Of a DNA stretch of 64,000 bases, positions 21,158 through 25,817 are shown one piece after another. Source of the stretch: Promethearchaeati archaeon SRVP18_Atabeyarchaeia-1 (GTDB lineage Archaea; Asgardarchaeota; Atabeyarchaeia; Atabeyarchaeales; Atabeyarchaeaceae); contig CP147779.1 in the NCBI GenBank assembly GCA_037308085.1, positions 32,001 to 96,000 of the forward strand, written 5' to 3'. The position numbers and the translations under genes are program-made. Position 1 is the first letter of the stretch. Each line of letters starts with the position of its first letter. The notes below the pieces were generated by a model. It did no database searches, was not told the origin of the DNA, and saw only the letters and a list, made by a program, of their open reading frames with translations.

Positions 21158-21991
21158 TCAATGCCCAGCTCTCTGTTTCCATTCACTGATCTTGTATCTC
21201 AGATCTTGCAGATTTCCGAATCCTCTTTTCCATTGCTGAACTTCCTTTCCAATTTCGAAGACCAGTGTCCCTCCGCCCTTGGCCCTCTGCTCTACAAGTT
21301 CTTTGAGGGCTTGGATGGCCTGGGAAACGAGTTCGGGAGTCCTGACTAGGCTGATGTAGTGCTCAACTTCGTCGAATATCTTGTCGGTGGGCAGGGCTCG
21401 CCAAGCCTCTATGTCAGGCATTTTGAGGGCGCCTGGAATTGCCAAGAGCGAGCCGCGAATCTGTACCGCCCCTTCCCGCAACAGGATTTCAATTGCCTTG
21501 TTTATCGTGATCAGGTCGAGCCCTGCAAGTCTTGCCAACTCGTTTACGTCCATGCTTCCTCTCTCTGTGAGGATGAGCAGAGCCCTATGTTTTATTGAGC
21601 CGTTTCTTAGAATGAATTCTCTAGCTTTGTCACCGACGCCAGGCTCCGCGGCTAACAGCCTGAACAACAAGCTCTCAACTTCATCGTAGCTTCTTGAGAG
21701 AGATTCAACTTCCTGCTCAAGAAACTTCAGTCTGGTCGTGGTTGCTTCCCCAAAGCTCGGGTTCAGCTCAATATCTTTTATGCGCCTGAGAGACAACTCC
21801 AGTTCGGCTTTTCCTTTCTTGCAGTCCGCCAAGGCTTCTCCGAGAGAAGACATCTCAGCAAGGATTCTGTTCCTCTCTTGCAGAAGTGAATTGTAGTTGT
21901 ACTCGAGCTGCCGCAACTCCGAAGCTGGATCTGGTTTTGACCGATCATCATCTGGCGAAGGCAAAGAATTCCCCCTAAGAAAATGTGTCAC
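21158..21991 (-). CDS. coiled-coil + winged-helix protein
   Basis: Heptad-rich N-half; GSMDVNELARLAGLDLITINKAIEILLREGAVQ wHTH. Confidence 0.65.
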   Translation of the reverse strand: MTHFLRGNSLPSPDDDRSKPDPASELRQLEYNYNSLLQERNRILAEMSSLGEALADCKKGKAELELSLRRIKDIELNPSFGEATTTRLKFLEQEVESLSRSYDEVESLLFRLLAAEPGVGDKAREFILRNGSIKHRALLILTERGSMDVNELARLAGLDLITINKAIEILLREGAVQIRGSLLAIPGALKMPDIEAWRALPTDKIFDEVEHYISLVRTPELVSQAIQALKELVEQRAKGGGTLVFEIGKEVQQWKRGFGNLQDLRYKISEWKQRAGH

Positions 21992-22082
21992 CGCGATAAG
22001 TAGTGCTAAAATCTTTAAAGTGTTTGGTGCTGTTACCTCTTCGGTTGGTGAGCTTAAATAGGGCTACGGGTCACCTAGTTTC

Positions 22083-23309
22083 ATGCAGGCATTTAAGGCG
22101 GTGCAGATACCATATGAGCCCACAGGCGATGTTCTCAGCCTCCTCGAAGCCTTCAAAACCATGGTCAACCACTGTATCCACGCCGGTATAGAGAAGAACG
22201 TGACGTCAAGACTCGGACTACAACATGAGGTATACCACCAGCTAGGCGGCTTCGGCCTCCACACTTGGTATAGCCTCTCAGCCATCGAGACTGCCACCGC
22301 CATTTTGAAGAACTACCGGAAAGCGAAGAGAAAGCGGCAGGACATTAGGGTGCCGAGAGCCACGAAGCTTATGGCTAAACTGGGAAACCAAGCCTACAAG
22401 GTTGTCGACGGCAAGCTGAGAATTCCGATCAAGCCCAGAGAGTACTACTATGTCCCCCTGCATAGGAGGGCGGCGCAGTTCCTATCGGACGCCGCACTCA
22501 AGTTAGGCTCAATAACCTTGGCACCTTGCACGGTTTCAGTGGCTTTCTCCAAGACCGCTGAGATTACCGAACCAGGGAGATACGTGGCGTATGACACGAA
22601 CGAACGCTCAATAGATGGAGCCTACATGAGAGGGTGCGGAGAACTGGCCGTTAAAAGCCACGACTTGTCAAGGGTTTCAGAGGCTAGGCACGGCTACTTT
22701 GAGCGGGTGCGGCGAGTCCAAGCTAAGTACGCCAAGGACAGGCGAGTAGCATGGAAAATCGAGAGGAAGTGGTTCGCCAACCAGAACAAAAAGGTTAGCA
22801 CGGTTCTACACCAAACGAGTTCAGCCATAGTCAAGCAAGCGAAGAACAATAAGCAGGGAATCATCCTCGAAGACCTTAAACATATCCGTAGTGCAGTTAA
22901 TCTGAAGGTTTTAGCCGTCAACAACTTCAATGGAAGAACCCAGTTGGTGGGCAGGCACTCCAAGAAATTGAGGCGGAGGCTCAACTCGTGGGGCTTCAGA
23001 AAGCTGCAGGGCTTCATCGAGTATAAGGCTCTCTGGGAAGGAGTCAAAGCCCTCAAAGTAAACCCTCGGAACACTTCTAGGGTGTGCGCGGTGTGTGGGT
23101 GCGTCATGCAAGACCCGAAAGCGAAGGCCCTGGGCTGTTGTGGGGTAGACCGCCACGTGAATGCTGGCCTGAATATGCTTAGAATCCAGGATGAAGGCCT
23201 GTGGTTCAGGCTGGATCGCTCCGCACGTGTAGCCGTGATTAGCCCCCTAAGAAGGGCTATGAGCCAGAGCGGAGAAGCTATCCCAAACGGTAATCAACCG
23301 AAGAGGTAA
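22083..23309 (+). CDS. tnpB: TnpB family RNA-guided RuvC protein (IS200/IS605 OrfB-like)
   Basis: RuvC-I YVAYDTN, RuvC-II IILEDL, LNSWGFRKLQGFIEYKA, VNPRNTSRVCAVCG..CCG Zn finger, RuvC-III DRHVNAG. Confidence 0.93.
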   Translation: MQAFKAVQIPYEPTGDVLSLLEAFKTMVNHCIHAGIEKNVTSRLGLQHEVYHQLGGFGLHTWYSLSAIETATAILKNYRKAKRKRQDIRVPRATKLMAKLGNQAYKVVDGKLRIPIKPREYYYVPLHRRAAQFLSDAALKLGSITLAPCTVSVAFSKTAEITEPGRYVAYDTNERSIDGAYMRGCGELAVKSHDLSRVSEARHGYFERVRRVQAKYAKDRRVAWKIERKWFANQNKKVSTVLHQTSSAIVKQAKNNKQGIILEDLKHIRSAVNLKVLAVNNFNGRTQLVGRHSKKLRRRLNSWGFRKLQGFIEYKALWEGVKALKVNPRNTSRVCAVCGCVMQDPKAKALGCCGVDRHVNAGLNMLRIQDEGLWFRLDRSARVAVISPLRRAMSQSGEAIPNGNQPKR

Positions 23310-23316
23310 CAGAACC
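23190..23316 (+). ncRNA. putative omegaRNA/reRNA scaffold overlapping tnpB 3' end
   Basis: Nested hairpins GGCCTG/CAGGCT (23196-23212), CTCCGC/GCGGAG (23219-23274), TAGCCC/GGGCTA (23240-23259) immediately inside the right end, where TnpB guide scaffolds are normally encoded; boundaries inferred. Confidence 0.5.
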
Positions 23317-23404
23317 AAGTGTTTTGATCACTATCTAGTTGTGCAGGTCTTCTCACAGTTGAGTTTATCTTTTGGAGAATAGAAAGTGGCTTGGATGAGG
23401 AAGA

Positions 23405-24553
23405 ATGGGCTTGCATGCTGGACGACTATCACTCAGTGACTTGGCTACCTATTTTTGGTCCGTTCAGGCGGCCGAATACATCAGAGAAAAGGAAGTCGAC
23501 GTCAGGGCGCTTGATGGGTATGAGGATGTTATCTCCGAGTCGGAGTCGTGGATCAACGCAACGCTGGAAAAGGGGCTTCTATCTCCAAATCCCAGTGGAA
23601 AACCCGAGACTACCATGCTTGCATACCCAACTGCCAGGATGTTTATCTCCATTCTCGGAAACGAGTATGTTCTGAGGAGATTCGCGAACGCCGTCTCTAA
23701 GTATGCTGGAGCCATGCTGGACAAGGAAGATGATGAGAAGGTCCTCTTGCTAGCAACCACTCCCGGCAACATTGCAGAAAGACCTTGGCAACTGGTGTTT
23801 CAGAAAGCAACACCCACAAGGAAAGACCATATCGCCGGCATGATTTATGAATGGAAGTTGTTCTTCACCGATTACGTTAGCGTCGCACAGAACTTCCACG
23901 ACGATAAATGGAAGTTGGTCAATAGACGCATGAAAGCGGGCTGGGTTTATCTCCTAAAATCTGACATAGCCCGACTAATGGAAGAATCTCTGAAGGCGAG
24001 AATAAGCAAAGGAGGTCTTAAGTCCGCCAGAGAGCTCCCGTCCCCAGAAGACTTGCCACCCAATCTGAAGATGGTTTTTGAGAGAATATCTGGCAAGGTC
24101 AAGAAATGGTCAAGCGAATTCCAAACCTATGATCTCCAGGCATCGGGCGCTGGCGAAATAGCCTACCCAGGCTGCATAAAACAGATCCTCGACAAACTTG
24201 GCAAAGGGATGGGCGTGAGCCACAACGAGAGGCTGGCCCTTGTCTTCTTCCTTTCAAACATAGGCAAAGACGTCGACGAAATCCTGCAGGTCTTCTCCAA
24301 GACTCCCGACTTCGATGCTCAGCGATCCAGATACTACGTTGAGCACGCAATGGGCTTTAGGGGTGGAGGTACAAAGTACAAGCCCTATGGCTGCCCAAAG
24401 CTAAAAACATATGGGATATGCAACCCCCAAGATGACTGGTGTAGAAACGGAAGGATAGGCTCCCGCATCCTCAGAGGACCTATCGGCTACTATAAGACCA
24501 AGAGCTGGCAGCTATCTGGAAAGAACGAGGAAGAAAAAGCAGAAAAAAGCTGA
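23405..24553 (+). CDS. priL: DNA primase large subunit
   Basis: WKLVNRRMKAGWVYL, YPGCI, SHNERL, PDFDAQRSRYYVEH, YGCPKL..GIC..C Fe-S domain. Confidence 0.93.
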   Translation: MGLHAGRLSLSDLATYFWSVQAAEYIREKEVDVRALDGYEDVISESESWINATLEKGLLSPNPSGKPETTMLAYPTARMFISILGNEYVLRRFANAVSKYAGAMLDKEDDEKVLLLATTPGNIAERPWQLVFQKATPTRKDHIAGMIYEWKLFFTDYVSVAQNFHDDKWKLVNRRMKAGWVYLLKSDIARLMEESLKARISKGGLKSARELPSPEDLPPNLKMVFERISGKVKKWSSEFQTYDLQASGAGEIAYPGCIKQILDKLGKGMGVSHNERLALVFFLSNIGKDVDEILQVFSKTPDFDAQRSRYYVEHAMGFRGGGTKYKPYGCPKLKTYGICNPQDDWCRNGRIGSRILRGPIGYYKTKSWQLSGKNEEEKAEKS

Positions 24554-24572: not shown

Positions 24573-25817
24573 ATGAACGCGGAAACAGCGGTCTACCTGA
24601 ATTCGATGTTCATGGAGTACTATGAGACAAGAGGTTCTTCGATGGTGGTAGCCCCGAAGGATCTAATTGAGAGGGAATTTGCGTTTACATACTTTGGAAG
24701 GGAGGGAATGTTCAGGCACCTGGGGTTCAGGGGTCCTGAGGAGCTCCTATCGAGCCTGAGAGTAAATGGTCCGTCACACTCCTATTTCAGCGCAGCTCAC
24801 TACGTGGATCCAGACGCGGGCACCATGGGGCAGAAGGGGTGGAAGGGTACGGATCTGATATTCGATATCGACGCAGATCATCTAGATGTGACGTGTAAAG
24901 ACAAGCATGATAGGTGGTTATGCAAAGATTGTGGGAATGCTGGTCTGGGAGCGAGACCAGAGAAGTGCCCTGCTTGTCAGTCTCAGAAGATCGATGATGA
25001 GATGTGGCTGTGCGACAACTGCATCGGGCAGGCGAAACTCGAGACGCTGAAGTTGATTGAGATCCTTTGCAACGATTTTGGCTTCTCAAGGAAGGACGTT
25101 GAGGTCACTTATACTGGGCATAGAGGATATCACACTAAGGTTACCTCACCAAGCATCTACTTTCTGACTGCAAGCGAGAGAAGAGAGATCGTGGACTACA
25201 TCACCGCAAGAGGAATCGATCTTCAGGCATATGGACTCATGGGGAAAGATCCCCACAGTAGGAGGAATCTTACAGGCCCCGGAAAAGATGACATAGGGTG
25301 GGGTTCAAGAATATACAGATCTGTCGTTGAGATGATCGAGAAAGGAGAAGCACCTTTTCAGGAGCTGGAGAACAAGGACATGGTACTGCGAGAAATGGCG
25401 GCAGCCCGATGGGACCAAGTGAATAGAGTCGCTCTGAAGAAGTGGAACAAACTCGTGATGAAAGCCATAGATCGGGACGGTATCGCACACATTGATGAGC
25501 CAGTGACGACCGACATTCACAGGCTGATCAGGTTGCAGGGAAGCCTCCACGGTAAGACTGGCTTCATTGTCACCAAGGTCGATGATTTGGAGTCGTTCGA
25601 GCCATTTCGAGATGCCATAGCTTTCGGATCAAGTGAGACGGTCACAGTCCACATAGATAAGAGCAAAGCGGCTCACTCATTTCGTATAGGAGATCAGACG
25701 TACGGACCATTCGTGGAGGAGAAATGCCAGCTGCCAATGGAGTTCGCCATTTTCTTCATGTGTAAGGGGGTCGCAGAAATCGAACGAGAAGGCGAGGCAC
25801 CCGCCTACCGAGGCTGA
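24573..25817 (+). CDS. priS: DNA primase catalytic subunit with inserted Zn ribbon
   Basis: REFAF, DLIFDIDADHL, YTGHRGYH, IDEPVTTDIHRLIRL.GSLHGKTG. Confidence 0.95.
   Translation: MNAETAVYLNSMFMEYYETRGSSMVVAPKDLIEREFAFTYFGREGMFRHLGFRGPEELLSSLRVNGPSHSYFSAAHYVDPDAGTMGQKGWKGTDLIFDIDADHLDVTCKDKHDRWLCKDCGNAGLGARPEKCPACQSQKIDDEMWLCDNCIGQAKLETLKLIEILCNDFGFSRKDVEVTYTGHRGYHTKVTSPSIYFLTASERREIVDYITARGIDLQAYGLMGKDPHSRRNLTGPGKDDIGWGSRIYRSVVEMIEKGEAPFQELENKDMVLREMAAARWDQVNRVALKKWNKLVMKAIDRDGIAHIDEPVTTDIHRLIRLQGSLHGKTGFIVTKVDDLESFEPFRDAIAFGSSETVTVHIDKSKAAHSFRIGDQTYGPFVEEKCQLPMEFAIFFMCKGVAEIEREGEAPAYRG

Follow-up and report, generated by a model that had tools for sequence, protein, structure and literature searches.

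A probable IS6-like transposon of an Asgard archaeon carrying tnpB and an omegaRNA-like scaffold

In the genome of Promethearchaeati archaeon SRVP18_Atabeyarchaeia-1 we describe a 1291-bp element whose sole gene, tnpB, lies between terminal inverted repeats (TIRs) and 8-bp target-site duplications of IS6 type. It stands in a 64,000-nucleotide stretch of contig CP147779.1 (positions 32,001 to 96,000 of the forward strand), hereafter the window, and coordinates below are those of the window unless given as genome positions. We consider it highly probable (roughly 0.8) that the element is a non-autonomous IS6-like (DDE_Tnp_IS240) archaeal transposon carrying an OMEGA-type (obligate mobile element guided activity) module, laid out so that a candidate target-adjacent motif (TAM), the duplication and the predicted guide would follow one another. 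The source genome is a single contig of 2.81 Mb with 49.6% GC, and its closest named relative in the public collection is the Asgard archaeon Candidatus Atabeyarchaeum deiterrae.

The element and its copies

The features of the element and its immediate flanks are listed here in order.

22014-22017, plus strand: TTTA, an oriented T-rich motif directly 5′ of the left duplication and candidate TAM, kept beside the single target copy in the empty sites of genomes G001 and G002
22018-22025, plus strand: left copy of the 8-bp target-site duplication, AAGTGTTT, single at the orthologous empty sites
22026-22047, plus strand: left 22-bp TIR, GGTGCTGTTACCTCTTCGGTTG, of IS6 type (GG tip, CTGTT motif), the same end being found on 11 copies and on a transposase-bearing 4.4-kb element
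22052-22060, plus strand: CTTAAATAG, a TATA-like box some 25 nt upstream of the ATG of tnpB, read from the sequence; TTTAAATA is conserved there in other copies
22083-23309, plus strand: tnpB, 408 aa, with RuvC-I D171, RuvC-II E263, His358 at the position of the RuvC-III Asp, and zinc-finger C335, C338 and C352
About 23190-23316, plus strand: conserved sense-strand RNA structure recognised by covariation, an omegaRNA-like scaffold inside the 3′ end of tnpB that ends at the element tip
23295-23316, minus strand: right 22-bp TIR, GGTTCTGTTACCTCTTCGGTTG, the inverted partner of the left one, holding the tnpB stop codon
23317-23324, plus strand: right copy of the duplication, AAGTGTTT, matching the left copy at 8/8 positions
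23317-23336, plus strand: predicted guide template, the right duplication with the flank beyond it, into which transcription from the scaffold would read through as in TnpB/omegaRNA systems

A preliminary description of the window had reported TIRs of 22 bp, a perfect 8-bp repeat and a tnpB-only unit with its stop codon in the right TIR, and every part of this holds in the sequence. The TIRs are identical at 21/22 positions (with a repeat-finding tool the match reaches 24 nt at 96%), the unit occupies 22026-23316, and its only long open reading frame (ORF) closes with a TAA at 23307-23309. Chance inverted repeats were considered and rejected, since the same boundaries recur in 11 genome copies and the TIR pattern, which has only these two matches in the window, has none in 100 shuffles; together with the empty sites in two relatives, this places the architecture of TIRs and duplication far beyond chance. 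The TATA-like box would be an internal promoter of tnpB and its mRNA of the leaderless type.

The 11 copies, which we term family A, consist of nine full-length and two internally deleted elements with 77-83% nucleotide identity. All of them end exactly at the TIRs (consensus GGTTCTGTTACCTCTGCGGTTG), and 8-bp flanking repeats are present at 9/9 full-length copies, three being perfect, five matching at 7/8 and one at 6/8 positions, with unrelated sequences from copy to copy. Five copies hold an intact ORF, and its stop always lies 7 nt from the element tip. One copy (c9, genome 655232-656523) carries the TIR variant GTCAAGTC, which apart from it was seen on the mini-elements described below and on an element of 6.2 kb in G002. 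As its left and right TIRs are altered alike, its ends appear to have been swapped or to have varied together. The insertion itself can be followed in G001, a genome of the same genus, and G002, a sister genome of the same family, where the flanking genes are adjacent and ..CCTTTA-AAGTGTT(A/G).. occurs once, without the element. The single target copy at these empty sites shows that the duplication was made upon insertion, upstream of the primase large-subunit gene.

Transposase-bearing elements with the same ends

The preliminary description had proposed that the element is mobilised in trans by a DDE transposase, and transposase-bearing partners with the same TIRs are indeed present. A genome-wide TIR scan allowing three mismatches gave 89 matches against 53 in the reversed genome, and because a scan at this setting is noisy we used only those matches that had a partner, a duplication or an adjacent tnpB. 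Two larger elements of the source genome are bounded by these TIRs.

Genome 614149-618567: 4.4-kb TIR-bounded element, TIRs 22/22 to the family consensus, flanks TGAAAAAA/TGAAAAAC, encoding a 251-aa transposase (genome 615503-616258)
Genome 549276-555829: 6.5-kb TIR-bounded element, perfect 8-bp duplication TGGAGAAC, encoding a 383-aa SWIM+IS240 transposase (genome 549896-551047)

Against the PF13610 (DDE_Tnp_IS240) cut-off of 27 bits, the transposases of the two elements score 63.7 and 65.4. The 251-aa protein covers the full domain (63.7 bits), and its best NCBIfam match is transpos_IS6, at 116 bits over positions 1-201 of 202 and so just under the curated cut-off of 125; the 383-aa protein is of IS6 type with an N-terminal SWIM zinc finger. 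IS6-type transposases are also encoded in G001 and in G002, the latter within the 6.2-kb TIR-bounded element, which has a perfect 8-bp duplication. The exact 22-nt TIR further occurs in metagenome-assembled genomes that come from soil, peat and wetland and belong to Bathyarchaeia, Nitrososphaeria, Thermoplasmata and another Asgard lineage, where it encloses transposases 61-64% identical to the 383-aa protein (Bathyarchaeia, Nitrososphaeria) and elsewhere TnpB genes. A TIR common to several phyla suggests that the transposon family has been transferred across them. Since ends and duplications are shared, and IS6-type transposase elements stand elsewhere in the same genome, mobilisation in trans by an IS6-like DDE transposase is well supported, as far as sequence comparison can tell. 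The transposase-bearing forms measure 3.05-6.5 kb and have cargo; a compact form of 0.7-0.9 kb with a single transposase ORF was not seen among the loci examined, nor were transposase and tnpB ever seen within one element among those examined.

A rival explanation takes the unit for a tnpB-only descendant of IS200/IS605-type elements (IS1341 group) that a Y1 or serine TnpA moves, its repeats being incidental or forming hairpin ends. In favour of it, three genes for Y1 TnpA stand beside other TnpB genes in the genome, where the TNB domain of TnpB has 46 matches, and insertion beside a T-rich motif resembles the target choice of IS605. However, these Y1 genes belong to ordinary IS605-type loci at which the genome-wide scan found no TIR match, the ends of our element are true 22-bp TIRs common to IS6-type transposase elements, and its 8-bp flanking repeats differ at every copy and are single at the empty sites. 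We therefore rejected a Y1 or serine TnpA partner, an explanation that we find hardly credible; the preliminary description had named ends shared with a Y1 element as the finding that would speak for it, and the three loci have none.

Apart from its transposase, the 4.4-kb element holds an HxlR-like winged-helix protein, a DUF5678 protein, a weak DUF4325 match and several ORFs without a family, and a second, subterminal TIR-like repeat lies about 40 nt inside each of its ends. The 6.5-kb element carries a 995-aa Eco57I/MmeI-like Type IIG restriction-modification gene and is thus a case of a defence gene carried on a transposon. About 0.8 kb past its right end lies a 508-aa TnpB/Cas12-like frame (genome 556653-556793). 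The 46 TNB-domain matches of the genome comprise several unrelated TnpB lineages, including the ordinary IS605-type loci, beside the TIR-bounded ones.

The TnpB protein and its relatives

The 408-aa product matches the Pfam family Cas12f1-like_TNB (expectation value, E, of 3e-12) and the NCBIfam models guided_TnpB (score 78, under the cut-off of 100) and TIGR01766, and shows weak sequence similarity to Cas12f and TnpB chains of solved structure. Its AlphaFold model (predicted local distance difference test score, pLDDT, 78) gives full-length Foldseek matches to Cas12f, ISDra2 TnpB and Fanzor2 with E down to 1e-13 and a template modelling (TM) score of about 0.6. D171 of RuvC-I, E263 of RuvC-II and the cysteines of the zinc finger do not vary. 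Between intact copies of family A the ratio of nonsynonymous to synonymous substitution (dN/dS) is 0.13-0.26 at dS 0.5-0.9, and tnpB thus evolves under purifying selection.

The same kind of TIRs and 8-bp duplications also bound a second TnpB lineage, about 40% identical (family B), and the degenerate remains of a third (family C), which occur in G000, G001 and G002. A metagenome scan returned 484 relatives, from which 80 loci were kept and 30 non-redundant elements with GGTTCTG-type TIRs were obtained, 16 of them with duplications of at least 7/8; element boundaries were set by anchoring on the GGTTCTG tip, and flank statistics are based on the loci with a recognisable tip. Because these TnpB clades are only about 40% identical and yet all lie in the same type of ends, we consider the partnership between TnpB and the transposon to be old.

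A conserved RNA structure at the 3′ end and RNA-only mini-elements

The last ~125 nt of tnpB, together with the right TIR, hold a conserved structure. A consensus from 18 aligned family A 3′ ends has 27 pairs with 96% of cells paired, ten pairs showing compensatory changes, and 0/500 shuffles reach the observed values, with slid controls only 25-50% paired; in keeping with its position, synonymous-site conservation climbs in the last ~150 nt of the ORF. Both invariant and variable G-U pairs assign the structure to the sense strand. A covariance model built on it recovers every one of the 11 copies of family A and also matches family B right ends, a family C remnant of 381 bp and mini-elements of ~257 bp, each time directly beside the right TIR and in one and the same orientation. 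It has no match in the two transposase-bearing elements of 4.4 and 6.5 kb, which therefore do not seem to carry the RNA. An Rfam scan of 21900-23450 found no family match, the only hit being a chance-level one to HgcG (E 0.39).

The mini-elements are four in number, have the TIR variant GGTTCTGTCAAGTCT and hold no ORF.

Genome 537694-537951: ~257-bp mini-element
Genome 868840-869096: ~257-bp mini-element
Genome 1526452-1526708: ~257-bp mini-element
Genome 2198749-2199010: ~257-bp mini-element

The RNA model matches 3/4 of them, one having a perfect duplication with TTTG on its left side, and from these matches the mini-elements are essentially composed of a TATA-like left end, the RNA and the TIRs.

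An oriented motif at the left flank

We compared the flanks of 35 TnpB elements that are independent of one another and whose duplications match at 6/8 positions or more. Upstream of the left duplication, T stands at −3 in 31/35 and at −2 in 31/35, with both in 27/35 against a background TT frequency of 0.087 (p 2e-22), and position −4 is a pyrimidine in 27/35. The mirrored AA after the right duplication is found in only 7/35. The overall motif is thus YTT[A/G/T], strictly oriented and lying just 5′ of the left duplication, and an explanation by mere AT-rich intergenic DNA was rejected because the motif is position-specific to the base.

The last base of the motif differs between TnpB lineages, being A in 11, C in 3 and G in 0 family A cases, and G in 12/12 cases of families B and C (Fisher p 7e-7). 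In the TnpB tree it follows clades (TTA, TTT, TTG) and not the TIR variant, as seen in the family B of G001, which has a family-A-type TIR but CTTG/CATG flanks. Given that the last base follows the TnpB clade, the motif looks like a TAM. Strict orientation and a clade-specific last base are the two properties specific to TnpB elements; the transposition machinery itself probably prefers T-rich sites, perhaps promoter DNA. We lean toward the view that the candidate TAM coincides with the target motif of the transposase, as it does in IS605.

A possible retention mechanism and the points that weigh against it

Put together, these features are consistent with the following scheme. A transposase encoded on the 4.4-kb or 6.5-kb cargo elements with the same ends would insert the tnpB element and duplicate 8 bp of target. 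Its cargo would be a complete OMEGA-type module, with tnpB expressed from the TATA-like box inside the element, and with an omegaRNA-like scaffold that lies over the end of the ORF and finishes in the right TIR. A transcript reading through this TIR into the duplicated 8 bp and adjoining flank would acquire these as its guide, and the T-rich motif directly 5′ of the left duplication (TTTA in the window) would serve as TAM. In the unoccupied allele the candidate TAM is directly followed by the 8-bp target and its flank, which would make this allele the one site that TnpB matches perfectly. At the occupied allele both junctions would be protected, the left because just 8 nt of the guide match there and the right because AACC takes the position of the TAM. 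By cutting empty or precisely deleted alleles, TnpB would favour copying or retention of the element by recombination, a logic known from IS200/IS605 that would here have been taken over by a DDE transposon whose duplication varies. In its widest form, the proposal is that an OMEGA module has been stably integrated into an IS6-like family across several archaeal phyla, with the duplication as guide seed, TnpB as a homing or retention drive and a TAM co-evolved with the preference of the transposase, to which we give about even odds.

Several observations weigh against this scheme, the first of them concerning the RNA. The scaffold is putative, a conserved structure that looks like that of an omegaRNA and whose expression we infer, and the guide drawn from duplication and flank is likewise predicted by analogy. 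Transposition of IS6 type is replicative, passing through cointegrates, and leaves no excised donor site, so that it is harder to see than in IS605 what the element gains from TnpB. As for current activity, no pair of copies in the genome exceeds 83% nucleotide identity, and with the closest pair at this level there is no sign of a recent burst. The duplications are far less decayed than the divergence of the copies predicts, so the copies must have diverged as mobile lineages before inserting; the recent insertion claimed in the preliminary description thus stands for the window copy only in the relative sense of a perfect duplication.

The flank motif allows a second interpretation, in which the element is the same IS6-like non-autonomous transposon, while the motif is a target preference of the transposase (possibly for sites just downstream of archaeal TATA boxes) and TnpB is a passenger. 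TnpB-less elements with the same TIR do have TT at the same flank position in 13/29 ends against the background of 0.087 (p 3e-7), so that the motif must at least in part reflect which targets the transposition machinery prefers. Nine paired TnpB-less elements had the motif on exactly one side in 5/9, on both in 1/9 and on neither in 3/9. Moreover, a TATA-like TTTAAA lies 3-5 nt upstream of the motif at many flanks, so that promoter targeting could contribute, and in the window motif and duplication together read TTTAAAG, upstream of priL. Such a preference would, however, not be expected to yield a one-sided motif, as a DDE transpososome is symmetric, and the TnpB elements have it on the tnpB-5′ side in 27/35 but mirrored in 7/35. 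The last base, furthermore, separates TnpB clades that have identical TIR variants in the same or sister genomes, family B of G001 being the example. On balance we regard this passenger explanation as somewhat unlikely.

A third explanation concerns the nuclease, since all six intact family A proteins examined have His358 in place of the RuvC-III Asp, a change that would abolish cleavage if the protein were nuclease-dead or domesticated, riding along as an RNA-guided binder or repressor like TldR; insertion in promoter-like DNA would suit such a role. Nuclease activity of family A is thus itself a prediction, which counts against the scheme. The substitution is nevertheless of a known “rearranged” type, namely conserved RuvC-III D-to-H branches that are probably still active according to those who described them (Altae-Tran et al., 2023; PMC10691335), and the RuvC-I Asp and RuvC-II Glu are invariant. 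Family B, which keeps the Asp and hence the canonical D-E-D triad, has the same architecture, and the gene stays with its RNA inside a mobile multi-copy element, unlike the fixed single-copy TldR loci. We therefore consider a nuclease-dead TnpB rather improbable and retain the reading of an IS6-like transposon with an OMEGA-type module.

Comparison with known TnpB and IS6 systems

The general kind of arrangement, a TnpB inside a TIR-bounded DDE transposon moved in trans, is already known. Six DDE-associated TnpB branches (DDE-1 to DDE-6), all with inverted terminal repeats, were reported in PNAS, together with solo TnpBs whose ends are nearly identical to those of transposase-bearing copies and which imply mobilisation in trans (Altae-Tran et al., 2023; PMC10691335). 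As in those branches, our TnpB lies inside inverted repeats shared with a DDE-transposase element and has its 3′ end close to the transposon end. The partner here, unlike theirs, is of IS6 type with variable 8-bp duplications and not ISL2, IS630 or IS1031, a comparison with the main text under which some overlap of branches is possible. A 2026 review names ISL2, IS630 and IS1031 as the DDE partners, IS6 being absent from them, and argues that DDE partnerships are rare in prokaryotes (PMC13565253). We found no paper linking an IS6-type element with TnpB, only unrelated resistance-plasmid papers, the supplementary tables of PMC10691335 and PMC11529989 lying outside this comparison; the latter paper, on Atabeyarchaeia genomes, mentions five “IS-like transposons” without details in its main text. 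The suggestion of the preliminary description that this host architecture is undescribed or little described must accordingly be narrowed, as TIR-bounded DDE-associated and solo TnpBs had been reported. What is new or little described is the IS6-type partner, the variable 8-bp duplication between candidate TAM and left end, the scaffold ending in the TIR, the RNA-only mini-elements and the spread across archaeal phyla including Asgard.

Among DDE elements, IS6/IS26 insertion sequences are among the nearest parallels. The hallmarks of that family are 8-bp repeats, GG tips and a cTGTt motif in the TIR, and a single passenger-carrying member and two miniature inverted-repeat transposable elements (MITEs) have been cited (Varani et al., 2021; PMC7986276). 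Our elements have short TIRs with the GG tip and the cTGTt motif, 8-bp repeats in family A, family B, both transposase elements and 16 metagenome elements, MITE derivatives, and a DDE_Tnp_IS240 transposase in the partner elements, which is absent from the 1.29-kb element itself. Their ends read GGTTCTGTTACC..., those of IS257 GGTTCTGTT... Classical members, in contrast, measure 0.7-0.9 kb and have one transposase gene, whereas the transposase-bearing forms described here extend over 3-6.5 kb with cargo, one transposase having a SWIM finger, and the commonest derivatives carry tnpB and the omegaRNA-like scaffold.

From the side of TnpB, the nearest parallels are the IS1341 group (e.g., the ISDra2 TnpB-omegaRNA system) and eukaryotic Fanzors. 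With the former our element shares a tnpB-only non-autonomous unit, a scaffold, putative in our case, that extends across the 3′ end of tnpB up to the right end of the element, a T-rich motif at the left flank and an empty site that would be the target of the nuclease. Elements of that type, however, have neither TIRs nor duplication, and move as single-stranded DNA with hairpin ends and a Y1 transposase; here 8 bp of duplicated target lie between motif and left end, therefore the duplication would form the first 8 nt of the target. Fanzor1 and Fanzor2 occur in Mariner/Tc1, hAT, MuDR and other transposons, and there too a TnpB homologue and its RNA sit in a TIR-bounded, duplication-making DDE transposon, the RNA ending in the TIR region. 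The Fanzor duplication is short and fixed (TA, TTAA) and belongs to the TAM at the 5′ end and to the scaffold at the 3′ end (PMC13565253), whereas ours is 8 bp long and variable, the motif lies outside it, and the host is an archaeon.

In the prevailing view TnpB is of benefit because IS200/IS605 and IS607 elements excise without a scar, and prokaryotic DDE partnerships are rare. The present one is old, has its TnpB under purifying selection and is spread over at least four archaeal lineages, and its layout is concrete, with a candidate TAM outside the 8-bp duplication, a duplication that would be the first 8 nt of the guide, a scaffold ending in the TIR bound by the transposase, and RNA-only mini-elements. 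It thus offers a tractable system to ask what role an RNA-guided nuclease plays in a DDE transposon that is probably replicative, and allows study of the co-evolution of TAM and transposase target preference and of the origin of arrangements like the eukaryotic Fanzor-DDE transposons. If true, a homing or retention drive by an OMEGA module in an IS6-like family would be a prokaryotic counterpart of the Fanzor-DDE arrangement, differently built. The small family A and family B proteins, with their T-rich TAM candidates, are moreover candidate compact editors.

Neighbouring genes

In the window the insertion parted the TATA-like TTTAAAG from the downstream primase large-subunit gene priL, at 23405-24553 (window 22005-22025 and 23317-23405 on either side of the element), so that the TATA-like part of the split sequence now points into the element. 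The large-subunit gene is followed by that of the primase small subunit at 24573-25817.

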